From contig CAWKBC010000047.1 of the NCBI GenBank assembly GCA_963847705.1, forward strand, positions 1-64,000: a DNA stretch of 64,000 nucleotides. Direction: 5' to 3'. Below the pieces are notes generated by a model that had not been told where the DNA came from, did no database searches, and saw nothing but the letters and a program-made list of their open reading frames with translations. Below, one piece after another: positions 32,302-48,773 of the stretch. The DNA is from an uncultured Pseudomonadota bacterium. GTDB lineage: Bacteria; Myxococcota_A; Polyangia; Fen-1088. Numbering within the stretch: position 1 is the first letter of the stretch; every line of letters starts with the position of its first letter. The translations under genes were made by a program, and so were the position numbers.

Positions 32302-32553
32302 TTACTTGCCCTCGGGCGCCGGGGCCTTCATCTCCTTGCCGCTGTCGCCCTTGGCCGCGTCGGTCTTGGTCGACTTTTTGGTGCTCTTCTTGGTCGACTT
32401 CTTGGCGGGCTTGTCGGCGGCCGGCGTCGCGCTGCCTTCCTGTGCGACGACGTGCGACTTGGCGACCTGGTGTTTGGCGGGCGCCGCGAAAGCAGAGCCG
32501 GCGGTGAGCGCGAGCATCGAAATTCCGAACAGCGTGGTGCGAATCATTTTCAT
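32302..32553 (-). CDS. Small secreted Lys-rich low-complexity protein
   Basis: MKMIRTTLFGISMLALTAGSAFA signal peptide; KKST x3; GGAG RBS. Confidence 0.7.
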   Translation of the reverse strand: MKMIRTTLFGISMLALTAGSAFAAPAKHQVAKSHVVAQEGSATPAADKPAKKSTKKSTKKSTKTDAAKGDSGKEMKAPAPEGK

Positions 32554-32597
32554 TCTCCGGGTTGGGGCGGTCTTGATTGACCGACGGAGATTGAGAT

Positions 32598-32614
32598 TGC
32601 AGCCGCGATGCCAA
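32598..32614 (-). promoter_or_regulatory. Putative sigma54 (-24/-12) promoter
   Basis: Minus strand TTGGCATCGCGGCTGCA has GG-N10-GC spacing, 45 bp upstream of the 32553 start. Confidence 0.6.
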
Positions 32615-32924
32615 GACGATCTTCGTCGCAACTCCGCCCCCTCCATGCCCCTTCGCGCTCCTCGGACCTCATCGTGGGGCGATCGCGCTGTGGCGGGGCC
32701 GCCATTGCGCCGCTCGGCGGTTTATTCCCGGATCCGCGGCTTCGCTGCTGCCGGGGGGCTCGCCGGGGTTCGCCGCTTCGCGGCTCGCCGCCTGCGCGTT
32801 GAACGTCGGCGATGTAGGTGCCCTGCCCATCCCCGACGTAGCCCTCCGTTCACGTGCGTGCGTCCGTCTGCGTTACGCGCGCATCGCCGCCCGCCGCCTG
32901 GTCTGCCGTTCTTTCCGCGCGTGG

Positions 32925-33039
32925 GCTTTTTCGGCGGCGCGGGATGCCCTTCAATACGCGAGACGCATCCCGCGCCGCCGAAAAAGCTTCGTGCGGAAGG
33001 TCGCGATAACTCGAGCGGCGGCGTTCTCCCGCACGAAGC
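32925..33039. repeat. Dispersed double-hairpin element, copy 1
   Basis: 23-bp perfect inverted repeat (32925-32947/32965-32987) plus 10-bp inverted repeat (32986-32995/33030-33039); 32919-32995 identical to 47954-48030. Confidence 0.95.
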
Positions 33040-33052
33040 AAGGTTCAGGTTC

Positions 33053-33328
33053 GATGGAGAGCGAGTCAGTCGCGAGATGGAGAGGGAGTCAGTCGCGAGA
33101 TGGAGAGCGTGCCCTGTCGCGAGTCGAGAGGGAATCAGTCGCGAGATGGAGAGCGTGCCCTGTCGCGAGTCGAGAGGGAGTCAGTCGCGAGATGGAGTGT
33201 GTGCCCTGTTGCGAGTCGAGAGGGAGTCAGTCGCGAGATGGAGAGCGTGCCCTGTTGCGAGTCGAGAGGGAATCAGTCGCGAGATGGAGAGCGAGTCAGT
33301 CGCGAGGTCGAGCGCGAGTCTGTCGCGA
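33053..33328. repeat. Tandem array of 12 monomers (22-24 bp) with a 46-bp higher-order dimer
   Basis: GATGGAGAGCGTGCCCTGTYGCGA + GTCGAGAGGGARTCAGTCGCGA x4 (33099-33282), flanked by 23-bp monomers. Confidence 0.95.
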
Positions 33329-33458
33329 GGTCCAGTGCTCGCGGGCGACACAGGCCCCGGGTGCAAGCGGGTCTAACTGCGAACGGTGTAACTGCGAACC
33401 TCTCCGGCCGCGAACGGAGCCGGCACGCGTGGCCTGGAGCGGAAGGGGGAAAGGGCGG

Positions 33459-36017
33459 CTAGCCCAGCCAGTACGCCAGCTTGAGCAGGACGACATCGTC
33501 CGCCGCGCGCCCCCGCCAGATCGGCGCGAGCTCGAACTGCGCGCTCCCGCCGGGCCCCACCGTCAGCGCCGGCGTCTGCGCGCGCGTGTAAACCAGGAAC
33601 AAGGTGGAGCCGAGGCGGTACTCCCAGCGCAGCACCAGGTTGACGTTCAACGTCGCCTGTTCCGTGTCGGGATTCCCGGATGGAGCGCCGGCCGGCATGA
33701 GCGCCGCGAATGGCACCTGCTCGCGGAACGCCGTCTTGGGATAGACGAAGAACGAGCTGTAATGAACGGAGGCGAGAAAGAGCTGCGTGTAGAACTGCAG
33801 CGAGAGCTCGGGGGTGAAGGTGTAAGCCGCTCGCACCGTGATTCCGGCGCTGTTGGCGTTCTGGGTCGCGAACCGGTAGTCGGCGGGAGAGCCGATCTCG
33901 ACCAGCGAGGCGTCAGACCCGACGTAGCGGCGCAGCCCGTGGTCGAAGACCGCCGTCGGGAGCAGCGTCAACTCGAGCTCCGGTCGAAACCGCAGCGTGA
34001 GCTGGGCGTTGGTCTGGAGATAGGCGCCAAAGCCACTCTCGCGCCGTTCGGCGGCTCCCGACCAGGCGAAGGTGACCCGTCGGCGCGGGTCGGTGGAGAG
34101 CGTGGCGATCGCGCCGCCGCTGGCCGGGAACTGCAGCGCCGAGCCGTCGCCCATCTCGCGATCGTCCGAGTAGCGCCCGCGGAGGTTGGCCTCGAGATAG
34201 AACGACCAGAAGTTGCGCAGCGTCCAGGTGGTGGTGAGCGCGATCCCCTGCCACAGCCGGACGCCGTCCAGAGTCTCGCGGACGTTGAGCTGAAATCCGG
34301 TGGTCGTCTCGCGCGTCACCCACCAGGGCTGTAGCGTCCGGTAGGCGAGGTTGAAGTAACCTTGATAGTCGTTCTTGCGCTCGAGGTAGCCGGCGTCGTT
34401 GAACTCGAGCTCGCGGCCGGTGAGGTGTTGCCAGCCGTTCCACAGCCAGTGCGCCCCGCCTTCCTTTCCGACGTAAGCCGAGAGCCCCCCCGCCGTGTCG
34501 CCGGGCACGATCGGGATCCCATCGGGCTCGCTGCGCGCCGGCCCGCGCGACAGCACGCTGCCGATCGCCTGCCAGGCCGCCGCGTAGTCGCCCGAGGCCG
34601 AGCGCCAGCGTCCGTCGAGGCTGAGCACATAGGCGTCGTTGGTGCAGCGGCCGTCGGCCGCGGGCAGCGCCTGAGTGGCCGGGCAGCGGGCGCCCGCCGG
34701 CAGCTCGGGCTCGAAGCGGTTGGTGGCGGTCGCCATCAACCCGACGTCGGCGTTGGCGGCGATGAGGCGCTTCAGGCGCAGGACGTTGAAGGCGGTCGGC
34801 GGATTGACCAGTCGACTGACCCGCGTGCCGTCGGCCGTCTGCACCAGGGCGTCGTTCTCGCCGGTGACCGCCGACATGACGCCCACGGTGGTCTTGCCGC
34901 CGATCGTGCCGGAGACCTTGGCTGCGCCGTAGATCGCGGAAGGGTCGGGTTGCGCGTAGAGCAGCTCGCCGGTGTTGAGCGTCGGCAGCGCCGGCTGGCG
35001 ACCGATGCGACGGGTGTAGAGGATGGGGCGGATGGTGGCGAAGACGTCGAGCCCTTCCAGGAAGAAGGGCCGCTTTTCGGGGAAGAACGTCTCGAAGGTC
35101 GACAGGTTCAGGATGACGGTGTCTGCGTCGACCTGGCCGAAGTCGGGGTTCACGGTGAGGTCGAGCGTCAGCTCGTTGGTGAGGTGCGCCTTGGCGTCGA
35201 GCCCGGCCGAGAGGTGCGTGAAGGTGCCGTGCTCGATCGAGCTGGCGTCGGCGCCGGCGTCCCGGTGCTCGAGCTTGCCGAGGACGAACGGGCGCAGCTC
35301 GAAGCGGCCCGGCGGCGGCAGCCCCACGAGATCGTCGAGGCGGCCGAAGTAAGAGACGAAACCGGCCGCCCGCCGCGGGAAATAAGCCCAGTCGTCGGTC
35401 TCCTGGCGCGCGTCGATGGCGCGCCGGACCTGAAAGCCCCAGGAGGCGACCGGGCGCGCGGTGAAACGGAGGCTGGAAAGCGGGATGCGCATCTCTGCGC
35501 TGTAGCCGTGGTCGGTGGTGGCGACCTTGGCCTCCCAGATGGCGTCCCAGTCTGCCGAGTAGCCGGTGTCGTTGTAGTGGATCGCGTCGACCAGGACGCC
35601 GGCGGCGTTGACCTGGAAATGGTAGGCGCTGACGCCGTCGCTGCGGCTGTCGATGTCGAGCCAGACGCCGTCCGAGGGGAGCGAGCCGTCGCGCCGCTGC
35701 AGCCGCCGGACGATCGGCGAGTGGACCTGCGTGCAGTCGATGCCGATGTAGAGGTTCTTGTCGTCGTAGAGGACGCGCACCTCGGTGTGCTCGCTGGGGG
35801 CGGCCCCTTCGTCGGGGTAGTGCTGCGTGAACGCGTCCGAGGGGATGGCGGCGCGCCACACCAGGTCGTTCAGGTGGCCGTCGATCTTGGGCGGCGCCGG
35901 TGTCCGCACGGCGCGGATGTGGGGCCGTGGCGGCAGCAGGATGGCCCCGCCCGGAAGGCGCGGGGGCGCGATCGCTTGGGCCAGCACCAGCGCGAGAACG
36001 GGAGCGGAGGTCAACAC
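33459..36017 (-). CDS. DUF5916-like outer-membrane protein with N-terminal CBM9-like domain
   Basis: PKIDGHLND..W, TEVRVLYDD, LTVNPDFGQV, FFPEKRPFFLEG; C-terminal LRWEY...LKLAYW barrel end. Confidence 0.85.
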   Translation of the reverse strand: MLTSAPVLALVLAQAIAPPRLPGGAILLPPRPHIRAVRTPAPPKIDGHLNDLVWRAAIPSDAFTQHYPDEGAAPSEHTEVRVLYDDKNLYIGIDCTQVHSPIVRRLQRRDGSLPSDGVWLDIDSRSDGVSAYHFQVNAAGVLVDAIHYNDTGYSADWDAIWEAKVATTDHGYSAEMRIPLSSLRFTARPVASWGFQVRRAIDARQETDDWAYFPRRAAGFVSYFGRLDDLVGLPPPGRFELRPFVLGKLEHRDAGADASSIEHGTFTHLSAGLDAKAHLTNELTLDLTVNPDFGQVDADTVILNLSTFETFFPEKRPFFLEGLDVFATIRPILYTRRIGRQPALPTLNTGELLYAQPDPSAIYGAAKVSGTIGGKTTVGVMSAVTGENDALVQTADGTRVSRLVNPPTAFNVLRLKRLIAANADVGLMATATNRFEPELPAGARCPATQALPAADGRCTNDAYVLSLDGRWRSASGDYAAAWQAIGSVLSRGPARSEPDGIPIVPGDTAGGLSAYVGKEGGAHWLWNGWQHLTGRELEFNDAGYLERKNDYQGYFNLAYRTLQPWWVTRETTTGFQLNVRETLDGVRLWQGIALTTTWTLRNFWSFYLEANLRGRYSDDREMGDGSALQFPASGGAIATLSTDPRRRVTFAWSGAAERRESGFGAYLQTNAQLTLRFRPELELTLLPTAVFDHGLRRYVGSDASLVEIGSPADYRFATQNANSAGITVRAAYTFTPELSLQFYTQLFLASVHYSSFFVYPKTAFREQVPFAALMPAGAPSGNPDTEQATLNVNLVLRWEYRLGSTLFLVYTRAQTPALTVGPGGSAQFELAPIWRGRAADDVVLLKLAYWLG

Positions 36018-36045
36018 GGGCGCCGGCCATTGTATAACCGCGGCG

Positions 36046-37119
36046 ATGGCGCTCGTGGAACGGCTCGCGGAGTTGGTGTCGTTCGACACCCAGAATCCCG
36101 ACGGGGAAGAACAGCCGCTCGTGCACCGCCTGGCGGGCGAGCTGGCGGCGCTCGGCGCGCGCACCGTCGACGAGGTGGCCGTGGGCGACCATGCCTACGT
36201 CTACGCCCGGTTCGGCGAGGGGCCGCCCCGGCTGCTGGTGAACGCTCACCTCGATACCGTGCCGGCCAACAGCGGCTACACGTCGCCGCCCCACCTGCTC
36301 GTACAGCGCGGCGATCGCCTGTTCGGCCTGGGCACCGCCGACACCAAGGGGGCCATCGCGGCGGTGCTGGAGGTGCTGGCGGAGCGAAAGCCCAGCCGCG
36401 CGGTCGGCATCCTGTTCTCGGGCGACGAGGAGCACGGCCAGACCTGCATGGACGCCTTCTTGGCCAGCGAGGCAGCCGCCGGGCTGGAGCGGGCCGTCGT
36501 CTGTGAGCCGACCGGCTGCCGGGTTGGCGTCCGCCACCGCGGCATCGGGGCGGCCAAGGTGTCGCTGGAGGGGCCGGGCGGGCACTCCTCGCTGGTCGAC
36601 GGGCTCGTCAATCCGGTCGCCGTGCTGGCACGGGCCGCGGTCGCGCTCGACGAGATGGGGCTCGCGCATCGAGGCAAGGGACCGGCCGGGTTCCCGGGGA
36701 TCAACCTCAACGTGGCGGCGCTCGAGGGCGGGATCGCCTTCAACGTCGTGCCGACGCGGGCGACGCTGTCGTTCTCGCTTCGCCCGGCGCCCGGGACCAA
36801 CATCCACCAGCTCTTCACCGAGGCCGAAGCGCGGGTGCGGGCCGCCGTCGCGCCGCACGCCATCGCCTGGACGCTGGTGAAGGCGAGCTTGCCGTTCGCC
36901 ACCCGCGACCTCTCGGCGTTCGCCCCGCTCCTCGGGGAGCGGTTGCAGACCGCTGTCGATCTGGGGTTCTGGACCGAAGCCGCCAGCCTCTCCCAGCATG
37001 GCATCGACGCGGTGGTCTTCGGTCCGGGCGAGGTGGGGCAGGCGCACGCCGCCGACGAGTTCGTCACCATCGCCGATCTCGAGACGGCGCGGGCCACGTT
37101 CGCGACGGTGCTCGGCTGA
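36046..37119 (+). CDS. argE: M20-family amidohydrolase, acetylornithine deacetylase-like
   Basis: NAHLDTVP, GLGTADTKG, DEE, CEPT, GHSS, GPG..AHAADE; coupled to a NAGS-like gene. Confidence 0.8.
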   Translation: MALVERLAELVSFDTQNPDGEEQPLVHRLAGELAALGARTVDEVAVGDHAYVYARFGEGPPRLLVNAHLDTVPANSGYTSPPHLLVQRGDRLFGLGTADTKGAIAAVLEVLAERKPSRAVGILFSGDEEHGQTCMDAFLASEAAAGLERAVVCEPTGCRVGVRHRGIGAAKVSLEGPGGHSSLVDGLVNPVAVLARAAVALDEMGLAHRGKGPAGFPGINLNVAALEGGIAFNVVPTRATLSFSLRPAPGTNIHQLFTEAEARVRAAVAPHAIAWTLVKASLPFATRDLSAFAPLLGERLQTAVDLGFWTEAASLSQHGIDAVVFGPGEVGQAHAADEFVTIADLETARATFATVLG

Positions 37120-38267
37120 TGGAGGCGGAGATCGTCCAGCGCTTCCTGGAGAGCGTCGGCGCCAAGGCCGACATCGACCTCTACCTGAAGCTGTTTCGCT
37201 CGCAGCGCAAGGAGAGCTTCGCCATCCTCTCGCTCAACGCGCAGATCGTGAAGAGCGCGCTCGATCCGGTGCACTTCGATCTGCGCATCCTGGCCGGGCT
37301 CGGCCTCTTGCCCGTCGTGTTGCTGGGCCTCTTCGAACCGAAGGACGCCGACGCGCAGGCGACGCGCGTCTCCGACTGGCTGCTGGAAGACGCGGTCCCC
37401 TGCGAGGTGATTCGCGGCGACGCCGAGATGAGCGCGGCGACCGTCGACGCCATCCGCGCCGTCATCGCGCGCGGCGCGATCCCGTTGGTCTCCGTCGAGG
37501 CGGCCGCGGCGCTGACCATCGACGCGCGCTTCCGGCTGCTCGCCGGGCTGGCGACGGCGCTGGAGACGCGCAAGGTGGTGTTCCTCAGCCGCCGGCCCGG
37601 CCTGGTGGTGGGCGGCGACAAACCGCCCTCGGTGGTCAGCCTGGCCACCGACACGGAGCGGCTGCTGGCCCCCGGAGCGCTCTCGCGCGGACAGGCCTTG
37701 CTGCTCCGCCAGGTCAAGCGGCTGCTCGAGCAGGTGCCGCATTCGATGGGCGTCAACATCGTCAACCCGCTGCAGTTCCTGCGCGAGCTCTTCACGGTCA
37801 ACGGCGCCGGCACGCTGATCCGACGCGGCTCGCGCATCGACGTGCGCGAAGGCTGGGAGGCGGTCGATCCGGCGCGGCTGCGGGCGCTCTTCACCTCGGC
37901 GTTCGGGCGCGAAATCCGCGACGACTTCTTTGCCCGCCCGATCGCGCGCACCTTCGTCGAGGAGAGCTACCGCGGCGCCGCCGTGGTCGCCGAGACCGCG
38001 GTGGCCCCTTATCTGACCAAGTTCGCCGTCGAGCGGCAGGCCCAGGGCGAAGGCCTCGGCAGCGAGATCTGGTCGCTGGTCACGCGCGACTACCCGGAGT
38101 TCTTCTGGCGCTCGCGCCCGGAGAACCCGATCACCGCCTGGTACGTCAAGCAGTGCGACGGCCTCCTGCGCTTCCCCAAGTGGCACGTCTTCTGGCGCGG
38201 CCTCCCGGTCGAGACCATCCCCTCCGCGGTCCAACACGCGCTCGCCGCCGACAGCGACTTCGGCTAG
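37119..38267 (+). CDS. N-acetylglutamate synthase-like protein (degenerate AAK domain + DUF619-type NAT domain)
   Basis: ELFTVNGAGTLIRRG linker, YLTKFAV, GEGLG, FWRSRPENPITAWY. Confidence 0.8.
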   Translation: MEAEIVQRFLESVGAKADIDLYLKLFRSQRKESFAILSLNAQIVKSALDPVHFDLRILAGLGLLPVVLLGLFEPKDADAQATRVSDWLLEDAVPCEVIRGDAEMSAATVDAIRAVIARGAIPLVSVEAAAALTIDARFRLLAGLATALETRKVVFLSRRPGLVVGGDKPPSVVSLATDTERLLAPGALSRGQALLLRQVKRLLEQVPHSMGVNIVNPLQFLRELFTVNGAGTLIRRGSRIDVREGWEAVDPARLRALFTSAFGREIRDDFFARPIARTFVEESYRGAAVVAETAVAPYLTKFAVERQAQGEGLGSEIWSLVTRDYPEFFWRSRPENPITAWYVKQCDGLLRFPKWHVFWRGLPVETIPSAVQHALAADSDFG

Positions 38268-38336
38268 CGGCGGCTCAGGGGGCGCCGAACACCGGCGGCG
38301 TGGTCCGCACGCGGCCTATCGCATAGGATCCTGGGC

Positions 38337-38780
38337 ATGACCCGAACGGATGTCATCGAGAAGATCGTGACCGCCAGGCTCGCCAAGAAGCTCACCTGGA
38401 AGGCCTTGGCCGAGGCCTGTGGACGCAGCGAGGTCTGGACGACCTCGGCGCTGCTCGGCCAGCAGGCCATGAGCGCGGAAGAAGCGACGGCTGCGGGGCG
38501 GCTGCTCGGCCTCGGTGCCGAGGAGGTGGCGCTCTTGCAGGTTCCGCCATCGAAGGGCTCGCTCGGCGCCCAGATCTCGACGGATCCGTTGATCTATCGA
38601 TTCCACGAGATCGTTCAGGTGTACGGGACGACGCTCAAGGAGCTGATCCACGAGAACTTCGGAGATGGGATCATGAGCGCGATCGATTTCGAAATGAACG
38701 TGGAGAAGGTCCCGGATCCCAAGGGGGACCGGGTGAAGGTGACGATGCACGGCAAGTTTCTCCCTTACCGCAAGTGGTGA
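38337..38780 (+). CDS. cynS: Cyanase (cyanate hydratase)
   Basis: TDPLIYRFHEIVQVYG, FGDGIMSAIDF, GKFLPY. Confidence 0.96.
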   Translation: MTRTDVIEKIVTARLAKKLTWKALAEACGRSEVWTTSALLGQQAMSAEEATAAGRLLGLGAEEVALLQVPPSKGSLGAQISTDPLIYRFHEIVQVYGTTLKELIHENFGDGIMSAIDFEMNVEKVPDPKGDRVKVTMHGKFLPYRKW

Positions 38781-38857
38781 GCGACGGAGCAGCAGGTGTG
38801 GGCGCCCCGGGGCCTCGAGGGGGGAATCGAAGGATCTCGTCAGGCGGGCGCTGAGCG

Positions 38858-40141
38858 TCAGATCCGTTCGTCGCACTCCGCCCGCATGACGTCGTCGATC
38901 GTCTCGCGGCGCGACACCAGGGTGGCGTGGCCCTCGTCCCAGAAGACTTGCGGGACGCGGCCGAGGGAGACGTAGTTCGAGCTCATCGAGGCGCCGTAGG
39001 CGCCGGCGTCGTGCAGCACCAGCAGGTCGCCCACCTCCGGCTGCGGCAACGGGCGCGGGTCGAGCAGCTCCTTGTCGTCGCGGGTGAAGACGTCGCCGCT
39101 CTCGCACAGCGGGCCGGCCACGACGAACGGCTCGGGGGTGCGGGCCGCGCCCTTTCCGACGATCGAGATGTGGTGGTACGAGCCGTACATGGCCGGGCGG
39201 ACCAGATCGTTGAAGCCGGCGTCCACCATGATGAAGCGGTGGCCGGGGCCCTTGGGGTTCGACTCGGTCCTCTTGAGATCCTTCACCCGGCAGACCAGCA
39301 GCCCCGCCGCAGCGATGGGATAGCGCCCCGGTTCGATCTCGACGCGGATCTGGCGCCCGGCCGCCCTGGCCAGCACGGCCGCCACCTCGACCAGCAGCTT
39401 GCGAAAGCCGATGAGGTCGTAGCTGGGCGCGCCCGGGCGATAGGGGTGCGGGATGCCGCCGCCCAGATTGATCGCCTCGATGTGGGGAAACTCCGACAGG
39501 CGCGGCGTCATCATCTCCACGAAGCGGCGCAGGTTCTCGTCGAACTCCGCGATGCGCGGGCCGGTCCCGAGGTGGGCGTGCAGCTCGATGACCGGCAGCT
39601 TGGCGGCGATCGCGCGGGCGCGCAGCTCGCCCAGCGCCTCGTGCCAGATCCCGTGCTTCGAAGAGGGACCGCCGGTGTCGCACGACTGGACGTGGCCGTG
39701 TCCGAAGCCCGGGTTCACCCGCACGGCGATGGGGCCGGTGTAGCCAGCGCCGTGCAGCTCGTCGATCATGCCCGGTGAGCCGACGTTCGGAAGCACGCCA
39801 TGCTCCAGCACGGCGGTGAGCGCGTTGTCGCGCAGCACGTCGGCGGTCAGCATGACCACGGGCGGCTTCGCCCCCATGGGGAACCCGGCCCGACGCGCCC
39901 GCAGGACCTCGTTGCCGCTCACGGCATCGATCCAGAGCCCCGCGGCGCGCACCGCCTCCAGCACCTTCCAGTTGGAGTTCGCCTTCATCGCGTAGCGTGC
40001 TTGCAGGGCGTCCCCTGCCGTCAGCGCCGCCAGGGCGTTCAGGCGCCGGCGCAGCTCGGCGGCGTCGTAGAGGTAGAACGGTGTTCCGACCTGATCGGCG
40101 AGGCGTTCGAGCGGATAGGCGGCGAGATCGAGCGACGGCAT
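38858..40141 (-). CDS. lysA: Diaminopimelate decarboxylase
   Basis: RYAMKAN, DAVSGNE, NLGGG, EPGRY, GPLCESGD, GAYGASMSSNY. Confidence 0.95.
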   Translation of the reverse strand: MPSLDLAAYPLERLADQVGTPFYLYDAAELRRRLNALAALTAGDALQARYAMKANSNWKVLEAVRAAGLWIDAVSGNEVLRARRAGFPMGAKPPVVMLTADVLRDNALTAVLEHGVLPNVGSPGMIDELHGAGYTGPIAVRVNPGFGHGHVQSCDTGGPSSKHGIWHEALGELRARAIAAKLPVIELHAHLGTGPRIAEFDENLRRFVEMMTPRLSEFPHIEAINLGGGIPHPYRPGAPSYDLIGFRKLLVEVAAVLARAAGRQIRVEIEPGRYPIAAAGLLVCRVKDLKRTESNPKGPGHRFIMVDAGFNDLVRPAMYGSYHHISIVGKGAARTPEPFVVAGPLCESGDVFTRDDKELLDPRPLPQPEVGDLLVLHDAGAYGASMSSNYVSLGRVPQVFWDEGHATLVSRRETIDDVMRAECDERI

Positions 40142-40221
40142 CTTGGCGAACTATCCCAGATGCGGCCCCCTGGTCAACGTCGCAAACGTTGCAAGGCCGC
40201 GAGGTCGCACCGCCGCGCCCG

Positions 40222-41553
40222 TCAAGCGCGGGACGGTTCGATGTCGGGGAGCCGGGGCTTCTGCGATGTGAGCGCGATCGGCGAGCGACGCGGCAGCGTG
40301 ATGGTGAACGCGGCGCCCGCCCCCACCGCGCTGGTGACCGAGATCTTCCCCCCCAGCGCCTTGCACAGCTCGCTGGTGATCCAGAGCCCCAGCCCGAGCC
40401 CGGGGTGCTGCCGCTGGCCGCTGGCGCGCTCGAAGCGTCGGAAGATCCGCTGCTGATCCTCGGCCGAGATGCCGATGCCGTGGTCGCGCACGATGAGCTG
40501 GACGACGTCGGCGGTGCCGCGCCCTTCGATCTCGATCCCGCCGCCGGCGCCGTACTTCACGGCGTTGGCGATCAGGTTGGTGACGATCTGGTCGAGGCGC
40601 GCCTCATCCCACAGACCGACCAGCGGCTCGGGAAGATCGATCTTCATCGCGCAGGAGGCGGCCGCGGCGTCGGGCGCGAACCGCTGCGCCACCTCGCGCG
40701 CCAGCGCCGCCAGATCGACCCGATCGAAGTTCAGCTCGAGGCGCCCCGCGGTGAGGCGCGACATGTCCAGCATCCCGTCGATCAGGCCCGACAGGCGACC
40801 CGCCTGCCGCGCGATGGAGCCGATGCGCTGCCGCTCGACGTCGCCGAGGACGCCGCCCGGCGTGAGGGAGACGGCGCGCTCGACGGCGTCGATCTGCAGC
40901 AACAGCGAGGTGAGGGGGGTGCGCAGCTCGTGCGCGGCGATGGCCAGAAACTCGTCGCGGGCCGCGATGGCCGCCTCGGAGGCGCGCGCGCGGGTATCGG
41001 CCTCGGCGCCCGCGCGCCGGAGCGCGGCCTCCCGCGCGTGCAGCCGGCCGTAGGAGCCGGAGATGTAGGCCGCCAGCATCACCATGATCGCCGCCGTCCC
41101 CGCCCACTGCCAGCACAGCGCAGGCGTGGTGCCGGCGGCGGTCAAGATGCCGAGCCCGCCGGCCAGCATCGCCAGCCCCGAGCCGATGATCGCCGCCGGA
41201 TGATCCTGAATCACGACGGCGATCGCCACCGGGAGCGCCAGCATCCAGTGAAAAAGAGGGCTGGCCACCCCGCCGGTGAGGGCCGCCAGCGCCGCGTAAA
41301 ACGCCGTCGAGAACACGGCCAGCGCCAGCATCAGCTCACGCGTGCGCTCCCGCCCGGCGCCGCGGAGGTTGAGCGCCGTCGCCACGATGAACAGCGCCCA
41401 GAGTAGCCGCACCACCAGCGGCCGCCAGGCGAAGTAACCGAGCGTGATCCGATCGGTCGCCGCAAACAGCACGATGATGCCGGCGCAGAGCAGGAGGACC
41501 CGCTGCCGCTCGCGCGTGCCGTCCGTCGACCTGCTGCGGTCCGCCTCGCCCAT
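40222..41553 (-). CDS. Membrane sensor histidine kinase
   Basis: Five to six TM helices; AHELRTPL H-box, NLIANAVKY N-box, DHGIG and GLGLGL G-boxes. Confidence 0.93.
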   Translation of the reverse strand: MGEADRSRSTDGTRERQRVLLLCAGIIVLFAATDRITLGYFAWRPLVVRLLWALFIVATALNLRGAGRERTRELMLALAVFSTAFYAALAALTGGVASPLFHWMLALPVAIAVVIQDHPAAIIGSGLAMLAGGLGILTAAGTTPALCWQWAGTAAIMVMLAAYISGSYGRLHAREAALRRAGAEADTRARASEAAIAARDEFLAIAAHELRTPLTSLLLQIDAVERAVSLTPGGVLGDVERQRIGSIARQAGRLSGLIDGMLDMSRLTAGRLELNFDRVDLAALAREVAQRFAPDAAAASCAMKIDLPEPLVGLWDEARLDQIVTNLIANAVKYGAGGGIEIEGRGTADVVQLIVRDHGIGISAEDQQRIFRRFERASGQRQHPGLGLGLWITSELCKALGGKISVTSAVGAGAAFTITLPRRSPIALTSQKPRLPDIEPSRA

Positions 41554-41734
41554 GCACCGGATTCTAACGCCGGGGCGGGGCTGGCGGCGTGGGCGCCCTC
41601 CGGCCGACACGTCGTCGGGCCAGGACGCTTCGCCCACCGTCGCCTCACGGCAACGCCCGTCCTCACAGGACGTTGACTTAGGGCCCCTGCGGTCCCTAGG
41701 ATCCGTCTTGAGATCTATCTTGCTGCGAAGACTG

Positions 41735-42448
41735 GTGCGAAGACCAACTGGAGCAGGCCTGGTGCTCGTGGCGCTCCTCCTGATGAGTGGCCAGCCCGCG
41801 CGGGCCGCCGATCCGCGGCTCGATTCCGCCCGCGCCCACTCGCAGGTGGGCGACTCGTATTACAAGCTGGAGAAGTACCAGAACGCGATCGCCGAGTACG
41901 AGCAGGCCTACGTGGCCAAGCCGGATCCCAGCTTTCTGTACAACATCGCGCAGTGCCACCGCCTGATGGGGCAAGGGGCGGAGGCGATCAAGTTCTACCG
42001 GCGGTTTCTGAAGGACGCGCCGACCGCACCCAACCGCGCCGTCGCGGAAAAACACATCAGGGATCTCGAGGAGGCGTCGCCGGGTCCACCGCCGACGGCC
42101 CCGCCGCCCGCCGCCGCTTCGCCTCCGACGGTGATCGCACCGGCACCCGTTTCGGTCATTCCGCCGCCGGAGCCGCCGGCCGTATCGGTGCCCTCATCGT
42201 TGCCGTCCTCTTCGACCTCGCCCAGCCCGGCGTTCAACCCACTTCTACCCACTTCAGCGCCGATGTCGACGACGCCAACCGTCGAGAACGGCACGTCCTC
42301 GACACCACCCGAGTCGCGTCCGATCTATTCTAAATGGTGGTTCTGGGCGGGTGTGGGGGCCGTGGTGGTGGGTGGAATCATCTTGATCGCGGCGACGGCA
42401 AAGCACGATCCGTCGTGCCCCGGAGGGTTCACTTGTCAAGGGAACTGA
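41735..42448 (+). CDS. TPR-repeat protein with Pro-rich linker and C-terminal membrane segment
   Basis: AIAEYEQAY..KPDPSFLYNIAQC TPRs; C-terminal KWWFWAGVGAVVVGG; start uncertain. Confidence 0.8.
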   Translation: MRRPTGAGLVLVALLLMSGQPARAADPRLDSARAHSQVGDSYYKLEKYQNAIAEYEQAYVAKPDPSFLYNIAQCHRLMGQGAEAIKFYRRFLKDAPTAPNRAVAEKHIRDLEEASPGPPPTAPPPAAASPPTVIAPAPVSVIPPPEPPAVSVPSSLPSSSTSPSPAFNPLLPTSAPMSTTPTVENGTSSTPPESRPIYSKWWFWAGVGAVVVGGIILIAATAKHDPSCPGGFTCQGN

Positions 42449-43530
42449 AACGCTGGCAGGCAATCACATTGGCGGCGGCGATCGTGCTCGTTCCGATCCT
42501 CTCGTGCAGCCAGCGGTCGCTGGTGCTGGTCACGGTCGAAGCTCCCCCGAACGTGACCTACCCGTCCGCGGTCAGCCTGGTCCTGCGGGCCAATGACCTG
42601 GCCAACGGCACGGAGACGACGACGTTCGAAAACGTCGTGTTCACCGGCGGTGTCTTCAAAGCCGGCATCTACCTTCCTTCGGACATGAGCGGCACCGTCA
42701 TGATCTCGGCGGGGGTGGATCAGGACAGCTGCCAGGTCGCCACCGGCAGCGCCAACGCGCTGGGTGTTTCGGCCGGAAATACGGTCTCGACGACGATCAT
42801 GCTCGCGGCGATCGGCTGCCTCCCCGTGGACGGCGGCGCGGGCTCGAGCGGCGCGGGCGGCAGCAAGGGCAGCGGCGGCAACGGCGCCGGCGGTGTGGCG
42901 ACAGGAACGGGCGGCGCGACCGGCAGCGGCGGCGCAGTTGGCAGCGGCGGCGTGGTCGGCAGCGGCGGTCACGGCGGAAGCGCGACCGGCGGCGTGGTCG
43001 GGACCGGTGGTGTGAACAGCGCGGGCGGCGTGATCGGCACGGGCGGTCACGGCGGAAGCGCGACCGGCGGCGTGGTCGGGACCGGTGGTGTGAGCAGCAC
43101 GGGCGGCGTGATCGGCACGGGCGGCGTGATCGGCACGGGCGGCGTGATCGGCACAGGCGGCCTCGTGGGCAGCGGCGGCAAGGGCGGCAGCGCGAGCGGC
43201 GGGACGAGCGGCACGGGCGGCGTCGTGGGGAGCGGTGGCAGCAGCGGCTGCACCTGCCCCGACCCAAACGAGATCTGCCAGCCCGGGACCACCACCTGCG
43301 TCTGCTCCCAGAGCGACAGCACGGCCTGCGCCAGCGTCACCTGCGGCACCGTCACGAACATCTGCAATCAGACCGTGCAATGCCCCGACAACTGTCCTTC
43401 CGGCTACGTCTGCGACACCACGCTCAACACCTGCCGGAAGCTGGTGACGACCGGTTGCGGTGGTTCAGTGGCCACCGGAACGGGCAACATTGTGGGGACA
43501 GAGGCCGCGATCTGCCCCCTGACCGACTAG
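42445..43530 (+). CDS. Lipoprotein with Gly/Thr-rich repeat linker and Cys-rich C-terminus
   Basis: ILSC lipobox; (G[TS]GGV[IV])n repeats; multiple Cys; start uncertain (CTG 42445 or TTG 42469). Confidence 0.75.
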   Translation: MKRWQAITLAAAIVLVPILSCSQRSLVLVTVEAPPNVTYPSAVSLVLRANDLANGTETTTFENVVFTGGVFKAGIYLPSDMSGTVMISAGVDQDSCQVATGSANALGVSAGNTVSTTIMLAAIGCLPVDGGAGSSGAGGSKGSGGNGAGGVATGTGGATGSGGAVGSGGVVGSGGHGGSATGGVVGTGGVNSAGGVIGTGGHGGSATGGVVGTGGVSSTGGVIGTGGVIGTGGVIGTGGLVGSGGKGGSASGGTSGTGGVVGSGGSSGCTCPDPNEICQPGTTTCVCSQSDSTACASVTCGTVTNICNQTVQCPDNCPSGYVCDTTLNTCRKLVTTGCGGSVATGTGNIVGTEAAICPLTD

Positions 43531-43542
43531 GCCGCCTCTCAC

Positions 43543-43805
43543 GATTCGTCACATCCCCGGTGCCGAGCTCGCGTTCCGGATTCGTCACATCGCCGGTGCC
43601 GAGCTCGCGTTCCGCGCTCCCCTTCTCGGTCGATTGCCACTTCACGCGCGTTCCACGCTCCCATTCCAGTCGATTGTCACTTCACGAGCGTACATCCGCC
43701 GAATCAAGCCGCGCGCCCTGCGAACCCTTCGCGCCCTGCGAAACCCTCGCGTCTGGGAACCCTTCGCGCCCGGCAAACCCCTCGCGCCCTGCGCAACTCG
43801 GCGCC
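43543..43805. repeat. Three consecutive tandem duplications (36 bp x2, 40-bp period x2, ~18 bp x5)
   Basis: 43543-43578/43579-43614; GTCGATTGYCACTTCACG at 43629 and 43669; CGCGCCCTGCGAACCC-like units from 43712. Confidence 0.9.
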
Positions 43806-43825
43806 TCCCGCGCCGAAGACAGAAC

Positions 43826-44524
43826 ATGCGCGCAATCAAGTCGGGACGGACTCGACAGCTGGGGCTGCCCATTCCGGCGGCGAGAACGTGGGGCGGGGCT
43901 CGGAAAGGCGCCGGCCGGAAGCCGCGCGGCCGACCGTCGATGCCGCACATCACGCGACCCAAGATCGACCCGCGATATCCGGTGCAGCTCACCATCCGGG
44001 CCACGCCCGGGCTGCCGTCGCTTCGCTCCCCCCGGCTGTTCGGCGCGCTCCGGCGGGCCATCGCCCGGGCCTCGATCGATCGCTTTCGAATCGTCCATTT
44101 CTCGATCCAGCAGGATCACGGACACTTCATCGTCGAGGGAGACGAGCCGCGCCGGACCCGCGGCGGCATGCATGGCCTCGCGATCCGCCTGGCGCTGGCG
44201 GTGAATCGCGCGCTCGGCCGCCGGGGGAGGGTGGTTGGCGATCGGTACCACGCCCGCCCGCTCACGACGCCGCGGCAGACGCGGGCGAGCATGGTGTACG
44301 TGCTGCTCAACTTCCGGAAGCACCTGCGTGCGCCCCCGTGCATCGACCCACGGAGCTCCGGGCCACACTTTTCAGGGTGGCAGCGAGGACCGGAGCCCAC
44401 GGAGCTCGCGCCGGCCACGGCCCTGCCGTCCACCTGGATGGCGCGCGTCGGTTGGCGGCGCGCCGGCGGGCCGTTGCGGGTCGAGGAACGGCCGGCCGCA
44501 GCTCCGCGACCGCACCCCACTTGA
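43826..44524 (+). CDS. HUH/Y1 tyrosine transposase, RAYT/IS200-TnpA-like
   Basis: VHFSIQQDHGHFIVE (HUH), DRYHAR, VYVLLNFRKH (putative catalytic Tyr), N-terminal WGGARKGAGRKP. Confidence 0.8.
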   Translation: MRAIKSGRTRQLGLPIPAARTWGGARKGAGRKPRGRPSMPHITRPKIDPRYPVQLTIRATPGLPSLRSPRLFGALRRAIARASIDRFRIVHFSIQQDHGHFIVEGDEPRRTRGGMHGLAIRLALAVNRALGRRGRVVGDRYHARPLTTPRQTRASMVYVLLNFRKHLRAPPCIDPRSSGPHFSGWQRGPEPTELAPATALPSTWMARVGWRRAGGPLRVEERPAAAPRPHPT

Positions 44525-44547
44525 TTAGGCGGATGTTGCGGGGGGCA

Positions 44548-44682
44548 GCCGCGCGCGCCCAACGGCCTGCCCCCGAGGCCCACCGGCTCGGAGGCCGCGC
44601 GCGCCCAACGGCCTGCCCCCGAGGCCCAACGGCTCGGAGGCCGCGCGCGCCCAACGGCCTGCCCCCGAGGCCCACCGGCTCG
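44548..44682. repeat. 46-bp tandem repeat x3
   Basis: GCCGCGCGCGCCCAACGGCCTGCCCCCGAGGCCCAMCGGCTCGGAG at 44548, 44594 and 44640 (last copy truncated). Confidence 0.95.
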
Positions 44683-44907
44683 AAACCCAACGGCGCGAGG
44701 AGTCGCCGAGGGATCGCCAAGACGTGACGAATCGTGAGAGGCCGCTTACCGGGCGGCACGTCGTCGGGCATGGTTCGCTTCGCTCACCGTCGCCTTTCGG
44801 CGACGCCCTCCTGGCCGTTGCTGACTCCCAGGGGGTCACCGTGAAATGGCTCGTCGTCGTGGTGGTGGTCTACACTGCGGTGGCGATGTTGCGTTCCGCG
44901 GTTCGAG

Positions 44908-46365
44908 ATGGCTAGCCCGCTGTTCGCCACCAAATCGATCGACGCCCTGCGCGCCGACGCGGCCGGCGAGCATGGGCTCAAGCGGGCGCTCGGCGCGATG
45001 GACCTGATGCTGCTCGGTGTGGGAGCCATCATCGGCACCGGAATCTTCGTGCTCACCGGACAGGCCGCCGCCGACAACGCTGGGCCGGCGGTGGTGCTGT
45101 CGTTCGTCGCGGCCGGGATCGCCTCGGGCTTCGCCGGTCTCTGCTACTCCGAGATGGCCTCGATGATCCCGATCGCCGGCAGCGCCTACACCTATTCGTA
45201 CGCCACGATGGGCGAGCTCGTCGCCTGGATCATCGGCTGGGATCTGATCCTCGAGTACATGGTCGCCTCGGCGGCGGTCAGCGTCGGCTGGTCGGGTTAC
45301 GCCGTGGCGTTCGTCCATGACGTCCTGGGCATCACGTTGTCGCCGGCCTGGACGCGCGCACCGTTCGAATACAACGAGGTGCTGAGGCAATTTCATTCCA
45401 CCGGCGCGGTGTTGAACATCCCCGCCATGTTGATCACCGCGGTGGTGACGACGATCCTGGTCATCGGCATCAAAGAATCGGCGCGCTTCAACACCGTCAT
45501 CGTCACCATCAAGGTCGCGGTGGTGCTGATGTTCATCGCCTTCTGCGCGCGGTTCGTGAACACCGCCAACTGGCACCCGTTCATCCCGCCCGAGCAGGCG
45601 CGCGGCCACTTCGGGTTTTCGGGCGTCATGCGCGGCGCGGCCCGGGTCTTCTTCGCCTACATCGGGTTCGACGCCGTCTCCACCGCCGCGCAGGAGGCCA
45701 AGAACCCGCAGCGCGATCTGCCGATCGGGATCCTCGGATCGCTGGCGATCTGCACCGTCCTCTACGTGGCCGTCTCTCTGATCCTGACCGGCATCGTCCC
45801 CTACTCGCATCTCGGGGTTCCCCATCCGATCGCCGTCGGGGTCGAGGCGACCGGGCAGCTCTGGCTGGTGACGTTCGTCGAGATCGGCGCCATCGCCGGT
45901 CTGTCGTCGGTGATGCTGGTGATGATGCTGGGACAGCCGCGCATCTTCTTCTCGATGGCGGTCGACGGCCTGCTGCCGCCGGGCGCGGCGCGCGTGCACC
46001 CACGCTTCGGAACTCCCTGGGTCACGACGATCATCACCGGGGTGGTGGTGGCGGTGGGCGGCGGGCTGCTGCCGGTCGGGGTCCTCAGTCAGCTCACGTC
46101 GGTGGGGACTTTGTTCGCCTTCGTGCTGGTCAGTCTGGGCGTCATGATCCTGCGCCTCAAGCGTCCGGACATCCCGCGCGGCTTCCGCGTGCCCGGCGGC
46201 ACCTATCTGGTGCCCCTCTGCGGCGCCGCCACGTCGACCTACCTGATGCTCCAGGAGACGATCAGCACCCTCATCCGCCTGTTCGGCTGGATGGCGATCG
46301 GCCTCGTCATCTACGCGTTCTACGGCCGCAAACACTCCAAGCTGACGTCAAATCGGGGACCCTGA
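44908..46365 (+). CDS. APC-family amino acid permease
   Basis: GVGAIIGTGIFVLTG, GSAYTYSY, FFAYIGFDAVST, EAKNPQRD. Confidence 0.95.
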   Translation: MASPLFATKSIDALRADAAGEHGLKRALGAMDLMLLGVGAIIGTGIFVLTGQAAADNAGPAVVLSFVAAGIASGFAGLCYSEMASMIPIAGSAYTYSYATMGELVAWIIGWDLILEYMVASAAVSVGWSGYAVAFVHDVLGITLSPAWTRAPFEYNEVLRQFHSTGAVLNIPAMLITAVVTTILVIGIKESARFNTVIVTIKVAVVLMFIAFCARFVNTANWHPFIPPEQARGHFGFSGVMRGAARVFFAYIGFDAVSTAAQEAKNPQRDLPIGILGSLAICTVLYVAVSLILTGIVPYSHLGVPHPIAVGVEATGQLWLVTFVEIGAIAGLSSVMLVMMLGQPRIFFSMAVDGLLPPGAARVHPRFGTPWVTTIITGVVVAVGGGLLPVGVLSQLTSVGTLFAFVLVSLGVMILRLKRPDIPRGFRVPGGTYLVPLCGAATSTYLMLQETISTLIRLFGWMAIGLVIYAFYGRKHSKLTSNRGP

Positions 46366-46487
46366 GAGGGGCCCGCGGGCCCCCGCGAAGAACTCCACGC
46401 CACCCCACGCGGGCGCACCCGCGGTGGGGACCCCGCGCCGGGCCAAGCCCGGCTCCGTCCACGCGATCACCTTTTCTGGTTCTAACG

Positions 46488-47297
46488 TCAGCGGCGGCGG
46501 TGGTGGGCCAGGGTGCGGCGCGAGGCTTCCGCGGTGGTGAAGCTGGGCGGAATCCTGAAGTTCGCGCGCACGACGTGGCCGGGCAGGCCGACCGACATGC
46601 GCCAGCCGCGGATCGTTTGCACGGCGCAGTCGCCGGCGTCCTCGTCGATCGCGGCCGCCGTCGCCAGGCCGACGGAGCCGAGCGCGCCGTTCGACTCGAT
46701 GTAGATCATGGCGTTCACCTGCTCGGAGGCGATCTGCCCGCAGGCCGCCAGCTGCGGCAGCAGCGTGGCCACGTCGCGGTCCACCTTGGGACCGTCGACG
46801 TCGAGGATCTCCATCCCGCTCTCCGAGCGGAATTCGACCGGGTACTCGAAGGTCGTCGCCTTGTTGCCGTTCGGCGCGTGGAAACGAATCTTGCGCCCGA
46901 CCTCGACCAGGCAGCGCTCCACGTCGTAGTTGCCGAGCGTCGACTCGAGCACCCAGACGTCCTGCGCGGCGCCGTCGCCGGCGACCATGAACCGGAGCAG
47001 CACCTTGCCACCCGCGTAGCGCTGCGCCTTGCCCGCGCGCGTGTAGCAGGCACGCACGTCGTCGAAGTGCTCCTGCAGCGTCGCTTCGACGTCGTCGGTG
47101 TCCATGACGCCGATCTCGTTGTCGAGCGTCATCGAGGCGCCTGGGTCGACCGGTTTCGGCGCCTTGCGATGCGCCACCGCGAACTCGGGACCACCTTCCG
47201 CGTCCTTGCGGGCTCCCTTGTCGCCTCCGCACCCGATCCCCAAAAACGCGAACGCCGAAACGAACAGAGCTGCTGACTTCACTGACTTCGACTTCAT
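46488..47297 (-). CDS. Lipoprotein with AgmX/PglI-type TonB C-terminal-like domain(s)
   Basis: GIGC lipobox; VRACY...GKVLLRFMVAGDG...VERCL...FEYPVEF, plus a second degenerate copy. Confidence 0.75.
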   Translation of the reverse strand: MKSKSVKSAALFVSAFAFLGIGCGGDKGARKDAEGGPEFAVAHRKAPKPVDPGASMTLDNEIGVMDTDDVEATLQEHFDDVRACYTRAGKAQRYAGGKVLLRFMVAGDGAAQDVWVLESTLGNYDVERCLVEVGRKIRFHAPNGNKATTFEYPVEFRSESGMEILDVDGPKVDRDVATLLPQLAACGQIASEQVNAMIYIESNGALGSVGLATAAAIDEDAGDCAVQTIRGWRMSVGLPGHVVRANFRIPPSFTTAEASRRTLAHHRRR

Positions 47298-47429
47298 GTA
47301 CACCTTGGGCCGGGGGTCCCTGGCGAGCTTTGGAGCGTCCTTCAGACAATTCCCATCGACGGAAGTTCCGGCAAGAGGAGACAAATTTCCGTTCCGCCTG
47401 AATTCCGCCCACTTGCCCGCGCGGCTCCG

Positions 47430-47456
47430 TGGTTGCGCAACACAGTTGCGCAACCA
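47430..47456. promoter_or_regulatory. Double palindrome, putative transcription-factor site
   Basis: TGGTTGCGCAAC-ACA-GTTGCGCAACCA, ~135 bp upstream of the 47297 start. Confidence 0.55.
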
Positions 47457-47613
47457 TTTCGGGGCTTTAGCAGCCTTCTTCCTCGTCCTTCCGTCGTTCC
47501 TCGGAGCAGATCCGGATTCTCTCGATTTCTCCGGTGTACGGCCCTTTCGAAAACGGCTCACCAAAACGGCCAGCATTCCCGCCGTTTTTTGCAGTGCTGC
47601 TTCTCGGGCAAAC

Positions 47614-47955
47614 GTGAACCGCATTACGCGCGCGTGTCTCCAGTCAACCGCATTACGCGCGCGTCCCCCAGGTGAACGGGGTTACGCGCGCGCGCCTCCA
47701 GTCAACCGCATCGTGCGCGCGTCCCCCAGGTGAACGGGGTTACGCGCGCGCCTCCAGTCAACCGCATCGTGCGCGCGTCCCCCCCGTGAACGGGGTTACG
47801 CGCGCGCGCCTCCAGTCAACCGCATCGCCCGCGCGTCCCCCCCGTGAACGGGGTTACGCGCGCGCCGCTGCTCGCGTCACCCACGGCGCTCGTCCGAGCG
47901 TGAACCGCGTTACGCGCGCGTCGCTGCTCGCGTCACTCACGGCGCTCGTCCGAGC
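47614..47955. repeat. Tandem array of alternating 27-29-bp monomers followed by two 56-bp units
   Basis: Units start at 47614, 47643, 47672, 47701, 47730, 47757, 47786, 47815, 47844 and 47900 with GTGAAC or GTCAAC. Confidence 0.95.
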
Positions 47956-47959
47956 GTGG

Positions 47960-48074
47960 GCTTTTTCGGCGGCGCGGGATGCCCTTCAATACGCGAGACG
48001 CATCCCGCGCCGCCGAAAAAGCTTCGTGCGAAGGCAGCGGAGGAGCGAGCGCCAACGCGAGATCCGCACGAAGC
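47960..48074. repeat. Dispersed double-hairpin element, copy 2
   Basis: Same 23-bp stem (47960-47982/48000-48022) and 10-bp stem (48021-48030/48065-48074) as copy 1; same 115-bp length. Confidence 0.95.
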
Positions 48075-48097
48075 GCAACTCGCGTTATTTGAAGAAG

Positions 48098-48170
48098 CAG
48101 GCGCGCACCGAGGCCGTCAGGCGCGCGGCGAGGTCATCAGGCGCGAGTCAGGGTCATCAGGCGCGAGGGC
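48098..48170. repeat. 20-bp-period tandem repeat x4
   Basis: CAGGCGCG at 48098, 48118, 48138 and 48158. Confidence 0.8.
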
Positions 48171-48272
48171 CGGGCGCGGCCGCTCGACCGCGGCGGCGGC
48201 CCAGGCGATTGCGCGGGCTCCGCGAGGCTCCGCCGAGCGGAGCCCCGGAGCCCCGTGAGCCCGCGAGCCCGG

Positions 48273-48734
48273 TCAGTACGCCGGTTCGAACCGATACACG
48301 TACTGCATGGTCCCGGTCTGGGCGACCTGCGGGTACTCGAAGTCGTTGAGCTTCTCGACCAGGCAGTCGCTGACCTCTTTGTTGTTCAGCGTCCCGCCGG
48401 TGACCTTGGCGGTGGCCTTGCCGGCCGGGGTCAGCTCCAGGAGCACGATGACCGTCCCCTTGAACGCGCGATCGTGCTTCTCGTCGAGCACGTCCTGATA
48501 GCAGCGCAGCGTCGACGGATCGCGCTGCTGCAGGAGCAGCTGCACCTCCGCCTCCTTGTCGGGCGAGATGCCGCCGGTCTGTGCCGCCACCTCGTTGTTC
48601 TTGACGACGCGAACGCTCCGCTCGTTGCTGTCCGACGTCTCCGCGCACGCGGCGACGGTCAACGTCGACAGCAGCGCCAGAGCGGCGATTTCGGAGCCAA
48701 ACAACCTACGTGTCACTGCGGCGATCGAACCCAT
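48273..48734 (-). CDS. Lipoprotein with AgmX/PglI C-terminal-like domain
   Basis: VAAC lipobox; LRCY...GTVIVLLELTPAG...DCLVEKL...YVYRFEP. Confidence 0.75.
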   Translation of the reverse strand: MGSIAAVTRRLFGSEIAALALLSTLTVAACAETSDSNERSVRVVKNNEVAAQTGGISPDKEAEVQLLLQQRDPSTLRCYQDVLDEKHDRAFKGTVIVLLELTPAGKATAKVTGGTLNNKEVSDCLVEKLNDFEYPQVAQTGTMQYVYRFEPAY

Positions 48735-48773
48735 GGACGACCCTCCTCGACGGAGGCGACCTTAGCCCCAGGT

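Follow-up and report, generated by a model that had tools for sequence, protein, structure and literature searches.

A dispersed intergenic palindrome of three hairpins, bordered by tandem arrays, at gene 3' ends in an uncultivated myxobacterial lineage

Introduction

Small palindromic repeats are common in bacteria, and their origin, spread and use are debated. Repetitive extragenic palindromic (REP) sequences are recognized by a conserved GTAG head. For some of the bacterial interspersed mosaic elements (BIMEs) of E. coli, binding of topoisomerase or a nucleoid protein, or pausing of replication, has been proposed. Bacterial miniature inverted-repeat transposable elements (MITEs) include Correia, ERIC/IRU and RUP. 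Mycobacteria contain intergenic minisatellites, the MIRU-VNTR loci (mycobacterial interspersed repetitive unit-variable number tandem repeat), whose copy number varies among close strains. Bacterial MITEs are described in general terms in PMC3184786, and E. coli REPs are reported to act as terminators and stabilisers at 3' untranslated regions (bioRxiv 10.64898/2026.03.23.713779). Here we describe a palindromic element that was first noticed as two intergenic copies, copy 1 and copy 2, in a 64,000-nucleotide stretch of DNA (the window) from an uncultured bacterium of the Polyangia (GenBank assembly GCA_963847705.1, contig CAWKBC010000047.1, positions 1 to 64,000).

The genome that contains the window (G000) is a draft of 6.1 Mb in 48 contigs and is 85% complete. 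Its 12 copies of the element, together with those of related genomes, form a dispersed family of non-coding palindromes made of three hairpins. With somewhat better than even confidence, we read the element as a mobile unit that is gained and lost downstream of gene ends and that is predicted to serve as a two-way transcript-end hairpin, either a terminator or a stabiliser. The tandem arrays at its borders are likely slippage products. No described myxobacterial REP, MITE or array-hairpin element was found in the open-access literature that was searched.

Results

The initial annotation had drawn attention to two loci 15,035 bp apart that share a 77-bp identical core. The window repeat scan recovered them as a direct repeat of 82 nt at 99% identity (32914-32995 and 47949-48030, spacing 15,035 bp). 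The sole mismatch, at position 5, leaves an identical run of 77 nt. Hairpin 1 (hp1) is an inverted repeat whose two 23-nt arms match perfectly across a 17-nt spacer at both loci, located at 32925-32947/32965-32987 in copy 1 and, with the same sequence, at 47960-47982/48000-48022 in copy 2. On the + strand, to which all coordinates given here refer, hp1 of copy 1 (32925..32987) starts with CTTTTT, ends with AAAAAG and forms a perfect 23-bp stem with a 17-nt loop; its counterpart in copy 2 is at 47960..48022. Hairpin 2 (hp2), at 32986..33039 in copy 1 and 48021..48074 in copy 2, has the stems GCTTCGTGCG / CGCACGAAGC in common at both loci and loops that differ. In copy 1 the stem is GCTTCGTGCGG / CCGCACGAAGC with a ~32-nt loop, and on the minus strand TTTTT comes directly after the stem.

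These two hairpins and their shared stems had been described as a double hairpin, which was correct as far as it went but overlooked a third. Upstream of hp1 lies hairpin 0 (hp0), a mirror image of hp2. It occupies 32875..32922 in copy 1 (stem ACGCGC / GCGCGT, ~36-nt loop) and 47912..47957 in copy 2, where it overlaps the final unit of a tandem array. As had been stated, the upstream motif takes collinear positions, 32870 and 47907, at the two loci (88% identity), and it occurs once more at 47851. The core is thus a ~185-nt palindrome made of three hairpins. A gene call based on GC content at third codon positions (GC3) placed zero genes on either locus, in agreement with the annotated lack of a credible protein, and Rfam covariance models gave 0 matches at E up to 1 over positions 32000-49000 of the window. 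The neighbouring genes match NCBIfam myxo_SS_tail and GltG-like, which points to Myxococcota.

The family was first widened by BLAST and by a profile made from the first six copies. All matches in the own genome were found in both orientations, and because every copy behaves in this way, the core itself is palindromic. R1, a covariance model of three local hairpins, matches copy 1 at 32862-33045 (168.6 bits) and copy 2 at 47899-48080 (155.6 bits). It gave 24 matches in G000, equivalent to 12 places on both strands, with E values of 1e-12 to 1e-36. The resemblance of the two loci is therefore not due to chance, and the element occupies 12 places in the genome, not two. The annotated idea of a dispersed element related to BIMEs or to REPINs (REP doublets forming hairpins) held for the dispersed palindromic family and failed for the REP/BIME features. 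The unit is ~185 nt long by the model and ~230-250 nt long between close paralogues, and in many copies its borders are often GTGAACCCC...GGGGTTCAC. Copies are 70-94% alike. The paralogues L080 and L083 share 94% identity over only 228 nt, and their flanking arrays are unrelated.

At E <= 0.001, R1 matched 20/61 genomes, counting G000. The matches were found in 17/25 other species of the same genus, 2/11 genomes from other genera of the family and 0/25 genomes from other families of the class. A family-wide scan at E <= 1e-6 identified 22/88 other genomes, with 16/25 in genus g1, 1/2 in g9, 2/4 in g6, 2/5 in g38 and 1/8 in g11, the last two both weak, and none in g7 (13 genomes), g39 (11) or g8 (5). 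G001 was fully scored and has 17 full and 2 partial places. Only 29-43 candidates were scored in each of the other genomes, which makes the copy numbers lower bounds; within the genus they range from roughly 1 to at least 20 places per genome where the element is present. Members of the genus that are free of the element are more distant (flanking-gene DNA identity of 73-78% vs 87-90% for G001 and G021), and they include good assemblies such as G010 (20 contigs, 88% complete). Plasmid and phage collections contained zero matches to the core.

Each of the 12 copies in G000 is faced by the 3' end of one or more genes, and no copy separates divergent genes. The 56 evaluable elements from ~20 genomes divide into 35 with convergent neighbours, 21 with tandem neighbours and 0 with divergent ones. 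The baseline, intergenic regions of >300 nt in G000 (n=1002), is 159 convergent (16%), 521 tandem (52%) and 322 divergent (32%). The element is confined to gene 3' ends. For copies 1 and 2, the sole incoming gene is on the side where the minus-strand hp2 stem abuts TTTTT.

G001 and G021, which were assembled independently, are collinear with the window region, and both copies are at the matching syntenic sites there. This rules out an assembly artefact, as well as a very recent origin, for the window copies. Between orthologous sites the core is conserved at 84-89% and the surrounding intergenic DNA is unalignable. When the flanks of 17 G001 sites were compared with G000, 9 were shared, counting the two window orthologues. 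Five sites (4 full copies and 1 partial) were empty in G000, 1 fell at a G000 contig break, and 3 could not be placed. In place of the element and its arrays, G000 has 7 nt at one of the empty sites, 0 nt at another (its convergent stop codons overlap), and ~4 nt, 34 nt or a short palindrome at the others; the first three (7, 0 and ~4 nt) are gaps between convergent stop codons.

Empty orthologous sites were also seen at several loci when more species were brought in as outgroups. The L089 site is filled in G001 only and is empty in G000, G021, G017 and G020; the L082 site is likewise filled in G001 only and is empty in G000, G019 and G008. These two filled states are most simply explained as gains. 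At C29b, G000 and G021 have the element, and the site is empty in G001 (36 nt), G017 and G020. At the C27 site, filled in G000, G021, G017 and G020, the flanks abut in G008 (1 nt). G001 keeps an 80-nt remnant alone at the C7 site, and one of its copies has undergone a precise loss of hp1. Because the site states differ among G000, G001, G021, G017, G020, G019 and G008, both gains and clean losses appear to take place between close species. From this comparison we infer that the element probably moves as a non-autonomous unit by means of a separate enzyme.

An unbroken Watson-Crick hp1 stem of 22-25 bp is present in 51/58 distinct copies (37 at 23 bp), and there are 41 different stem sequences. 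Over the 53 full copies, Watson-Crick pairs fill 1214/1219 hp1 pair cells, with G-T pairs in 2 and other combinations in 3. The T5/A5 runs at the base of the stem are found in 51-52 of the 53. Local pairing in the same copies accounts for 370/412 cells (90%) in hp0 and 404/424 cells (95%) in hp2, and long-range pairing registers reach at most 77% of cells. One long hairpin is favoured by RNAalifold and by single-sequence folds, but the pairing over 53 copies leans toward three local hairpins. Since the alignment was fitted to the local model, this preference is not decisive.

Among paralogues the hp1 loop is found in both orientations. The G021 orthologue of copy 1 has a compensatory A-T to C-G change plus an inverted loop, a combination that PMC8794818 ranks as the strongest signature of template switching. 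Wobble pairs are nearly absent and pairing is equal on both strands, which fits constraint at the DNA level better than selection on one RNA. CG-to-GC swaps were considered as proof of DNA-level correction and given zero weight, as many are 1-nt register shifts in GC-rich runs. Copies 1 and 2 both read GGGATGC in G000 and in G001, and both read GGGCTGC in G021. The two window copies therefore evolve in concert, probably via gene conversion over ~80 nt. We infer that the stem stays perfect through correction at the DNA level, by template switching or gene conversion, and/or through selection.

Both loci are bordered by tandem arrays, whose sizes agree with those first annotated. The right array of copy 1 (33034..33355) consists of a 46-nt unit x6, equal to 12 half-units of 23 nt, and was called by Tandem Repeats Finder (TRF) at 33057-33332. 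Copy 2 has a left array at 47571..47958 (TRF 47617-47958) with a 29/58-nt period followed by 56 nt x2, and a right array at 48098..48170 with a ~20-nt unit x ~2.4-4 (TRF 48098-48145, period 20, 2.4 copies). The units of the copy 2 left array are repeats of the element's own left end (GTGAAC..TTACGCGCGCG).

Tandem arrays are a general trait of this genome, because TRF found 921 arrays of period >=8 in the 6.1 Mb of G000, 468 of them intergenic. The idea that arrays are unique to the element was rejected; it accounts for only ~20 of the 921. Nonetheless, the element is strongly enriched for arrays, as one stands beside 12/12 own copies vs 213/838 intergenic regions of 300-1200 nt. Across genomes, 49/56 elements (88%) have a TRF array within 200 nt, 39 on the left, 39 on the right and 29 on both sides, mostly within 50 nt. 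The arms amplify independently, as had been proposed, and the arrays differ both per copy and between orthologues of one copy. At the copy 1 site, G000 has the 46 nt x6 array, G001 about two units of 23 nt, and G021 an array of hexamers together with a left array that G000 lacks. More generally, the arrays of close paralogues are unrelated, and those of orthologues differ in unit and copy number. At L086 the array begins at the element junction and repeats apparent target-site DNA. In the empty-site comparison, sites without the core were also without arrays. We also considered whether the two arrays of a copy are mirror images. The C7 copy fits this idea, with 407 nt of inverted matches, and C29a fits it in part; the other 10 own copies do not, and the idea was dropped as a general rule. 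Taken together, the arrays are likely to arise locally, by slippage or tandem duplication beside a palindrome that would stall the replication fork.

Several other repeats were observed during this work. The copy 1 orthologous site in the element-free species G011 (C119, L079) has, at the corresponding gene end, inverted hexamer arrays, (GTCCTC)5 ... (GAGGAC)5, that enclose a short centre; in G005 this site is taken by a plain GC hairpin. Different hairpin-forming solutions therefore occupy one 3' end. G000 also contains a second palindromic intergenic family, which has a conserved ~40-nt centre (GAAGGAATCCTCGGCCGCGAACGATCAGAGCGGCC) and variable, copy-specific inverted arms (C8:36784-36903, C16:41117-41232, C21:2466-2582, C14:55253-55613 and C7:77879-78002). 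Within the window, 44739-44815 and 41591-41663 belong to a dispersed hairpin-forming repeat of 75-80 nt with ~49 matches in G000. Some of its copies form 74-nt tandem runs (contigs C31 and C21), and dozens of ~90% copies are found in G010, G007 and G015. It could be the real high-copy REP-like family of the genus. Finally, the open reading frame (ORF) 42334-43530 contains an 18-nt periodic repeat at 42886-43241, in which a 110-nt pattern occurs 9 times. This ORF, which has zero Pfam or NCBIfam matches, probably encodes a repetitive protein.

Discussion

The reading that we favour, a mobile palindrome with a predicted role at transcript ends, involves four proposed steps. A non-autonomous palindromic unit would move by an enzyme encoded elsewhere. 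Once in place, a transcript arriving from either side would meet an outer hairpin and, within 0-3 nt, an invariant tract of five or six U residues, and would end or be stabilised there. The palindrome would stall replication, and tandem duplication of the junction DNA would generate the arrays. Template switching or gene conversion, and/or selection, would keep the hp1 stem perfect. In the predicted folds, the last paired base is 0-3 nt ahead of the U-tract in 41/51 copies on the top strand and 48/51 on the bottom strand; any 75-nt GC-rich RNA folds strongly, and these spacing counts are therefore weak evidence. The analogy with REPs makes a role at transcript 3' ends reasonable, though it is no test of that role.

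Several further points weigh against this reading. The polarity of hp1 is the reverse of that of an intrinsic terminator, with the T-tract ahead of the stem and the A-tract behind it. The outer hairpins have loops of ~35 nt, unlike compact terminators, and a simple terminator scan made zero calls at the element. The pair statistics come from the alignment fitted to the local model. The gene calls behind the position counts came from a crude GC3 finder, and orthologous sites were counted more than once and are not independent. The location at 3' ends could reflect merely selection against insertions in promoters. Movement is read from presence and absence alone, so that some of the 'empty' sites could be precise deletions, and the C29b pattern calls for either a loss or a pair of gains. 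Five filled/empty junction pairs, where the arrays obscure the junctions, revealed no consistent target-site duplication; one junction has a possible GCTAG or 20-nt direct repeat. A scan for pairs of end motifs, confined to the own genome, found no autonomous parent insertion sequence (IS), its sole match being the known C30 copy, and no transposase for the element was found.

A more ambitious form of the same reading can be put forward tentatively, and we consider it doubtful. The element would then be a self-correcting mobile two-way terminator cassette of the fold-back type. Its hp1 would be kept perfect in place by template switching and inter-copy conversion, and the cassette would land in the handful of bases that separate converging genes and seed minisatellites at its borders. 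If this were true, palindrome maintenance, loop flip-flop and the birth of minisatellites could be watched across species.

The rival that survives best, and that we also regard as possible but rather unlikely, is a selfish or neutral DNA palindrome without an RNA role. Such a palindrome would spread and persist only downstream of genes, where its insertion does no harm, its stem would be a by-product of template-switch correction, and the T/A tract would be a site of recognition or nicking for its mobilising enzyme. The near-zero wobble in 1219 cells and the two loop orientations fit the DNA-level constraint expected of it, and its patchy distribution, the clean losses at some sites and the non-terminator polarity of hp1 are also consistent with this explanation. 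However, a harmless passenger does not readily account for an orthologous core that is conserved at 84-89% amid unalignable intergenic DNA, nor for a conserved U-tract that adjoins the outer hairpins on both strands. Moreover, the gains that landed in the 0-7-nt gaps between convergent stop codons hit a very small neutral target.

We judge it improbable that the element is a DNA structural site, that is, a cruciform or hairpin between converging units that binds topoisomerase or a nucleoid protein or pauses replication. The 35/56 copies between convergent genes, a palindrome that is perfect on both strands and border arrays that fit fork stalling are all in keeping with such a site. The 41 versions of the stem, however, would limit sequence-specific binding to the T/A tract.

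The initial annotation suggested that the element is REPIN/BIME-like and is possibly maintained by the product of the gene at 43826-44524, which lies between the two copies and resembles a REP-associated tyrosine transposase (RAYT). The protein is 232 aa long, Y1/HUH-like, and has HGH and RYH motifs. It has zero Pfam matches, and its match to NCBIfam REP_Tyr_transpos is weak (16.5 bits, E 0.0057, against a cut-off of 80 bits). The gene is part of an insertion at 43528-44748 that, like the element, has inverted repeats at its ends and tandem arrays beside it (36 nt x2 and 46 nt x3). Its 28-nt inverted repeats, however, are unrelated to the hairpin element. Three near-identical copies of this insertion are present in G000, each with its own inverted ends, and G020 has up to 47 matches. 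The gene is absent from the syntenic interval in G021, where both copies of the element are in place. Among the 61 genomes, 11 have both, 9 the element only, 17 the gene only and 24 neither. G015 has 17 gene matches and zero element matches, and G033, G003 and G018, with zero gene matches, have 38, 22 and 24 matches to the element, at two per place. The RAYT-like gene is a separate insertion sequence, and mobilisation of the hairpin element by its product is largely refuted and very improbable.

We consider it just as improbable that the element is a family of independently transcribed, structured small RNA genes. The strong predicted fold (-104.9 kcal/mol, z -5.9) and the covarying stems are what such a family would be expected to have. 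On the other hand, the scan found no promoter-like site and Rfam gave no match, both strands fold alike, the loop orientation flips and wobble pairs are near-absent. The copy number, moreover, goes from none detected to at least 20 among species of one genus. Duplication of one locus by the assembly is a negligible concern, despite a draft genome of 48 contigs in which a contig break coincides with one G001 element site, since flanks, loops and arrays differ between the copies and both are syntenic in G001 and G021.

Should the element indeed terminate or stabilise transcripts, it would amount to a portable 3'-end module, rewiring the expression of converging genes in an uncultivated myxobacterial lineage. 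If it has no role in transcripts, it is still a good natural model for palindrome maintenance and minisatellite generation. In either case the family is an unusually clean data set, with dozens of diverged perfect stems, flipping loops, neighbours that evolve in concert and sites that are cleanly filled or empty between species that are ~90% alike. For annotation, the element accounts for long intergenic stretches that look 'empty' and for some of the contig breaks in these draft genomes.

Relation to described repeat systems

The element resembles the REP/BIME sequences of enterobacteria and REPIN-RAYT systems in being an extragenic palindrome at gene 3' ends, often between convergent genes. 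As with REPs and BIMEs, its location varies among strains, and there is local tandem amplification as in BIMEs. It differs in size, as the unit is ~185-250 nt with three hairpins and not a 20-40-nt REP, and in number, with tens of copies (12 in G000 and 19 in G001) and not hundreds. The GTAG head was not found in the element. Unlike REPIN-RAYT systems, it has no cognate RAYT in the co-occurrence test of 61 genomes. Where BIMEs have alternating REPs, its arrays repeat, in direct orientation, units that are specific to each copy and are mostly made of junction or flank DNA; the copy 2 left array alone repeats part of the element's end. Roles as terminators and mRNA stabilisers, such as we predict here, have been proposed for REPs in the preprint cited above (bioRxiv 10.64898/2026.03.23.713779).

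MITEs are similar in that they are small, non-coding, multicopy and intergenic, with terminal inverted repeats that fold into a long hairpin and with insertion polymorphism among relatives. Unlike MITEs, the present element has no parent IS in the scan of its own genome; no consistent target-site duplication was seen at the five junction pairs, which the arrays obscure. Its copies are 70-94% alike and not near-identical, the hp1 stem remains perfect while its sequence drifts, and 88% of the copies have hypervariable tandem arrays at their borders.

Bidirectional intrinsic terminators also lie between convergent genes and have a GC-rich hairpin and U-tracts on both strands. G000 uses canonical examples, such as A9-stem-T4 at C7:113437. 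The element departs from these in the inverted polarity at hp1 and in having a U-tract only after the outer, long-looped hairpins. The evolution of quasipalindromes by template switching, as described in PMC8794818 (see also PMC7202029), shares with it the perfect stems achieved via compensatory changes, the loop inversions and the single event that alters both arms. The cases treated there are RNA genes and mutation hotspots, whereas the present one is a dispersed mobile repeat family with flanking minisatellites.

MIRU-VNTR loci are likewise intergenic minisatellites that vary between close strains. There the repeat unit is the dispersed element, whereas here the array units are private and are anchored to a conserved palindromic core. 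In contrast to CRISPR arrays, the units follow one another head to tail with no spacers between them, and every locus has a different unit; no search for cas genes was made. The element is a new family of a known general kind, the MITE/REP-like intergenic palindromes, and it is unusual in its architecture and in its coupling to minisatellites.

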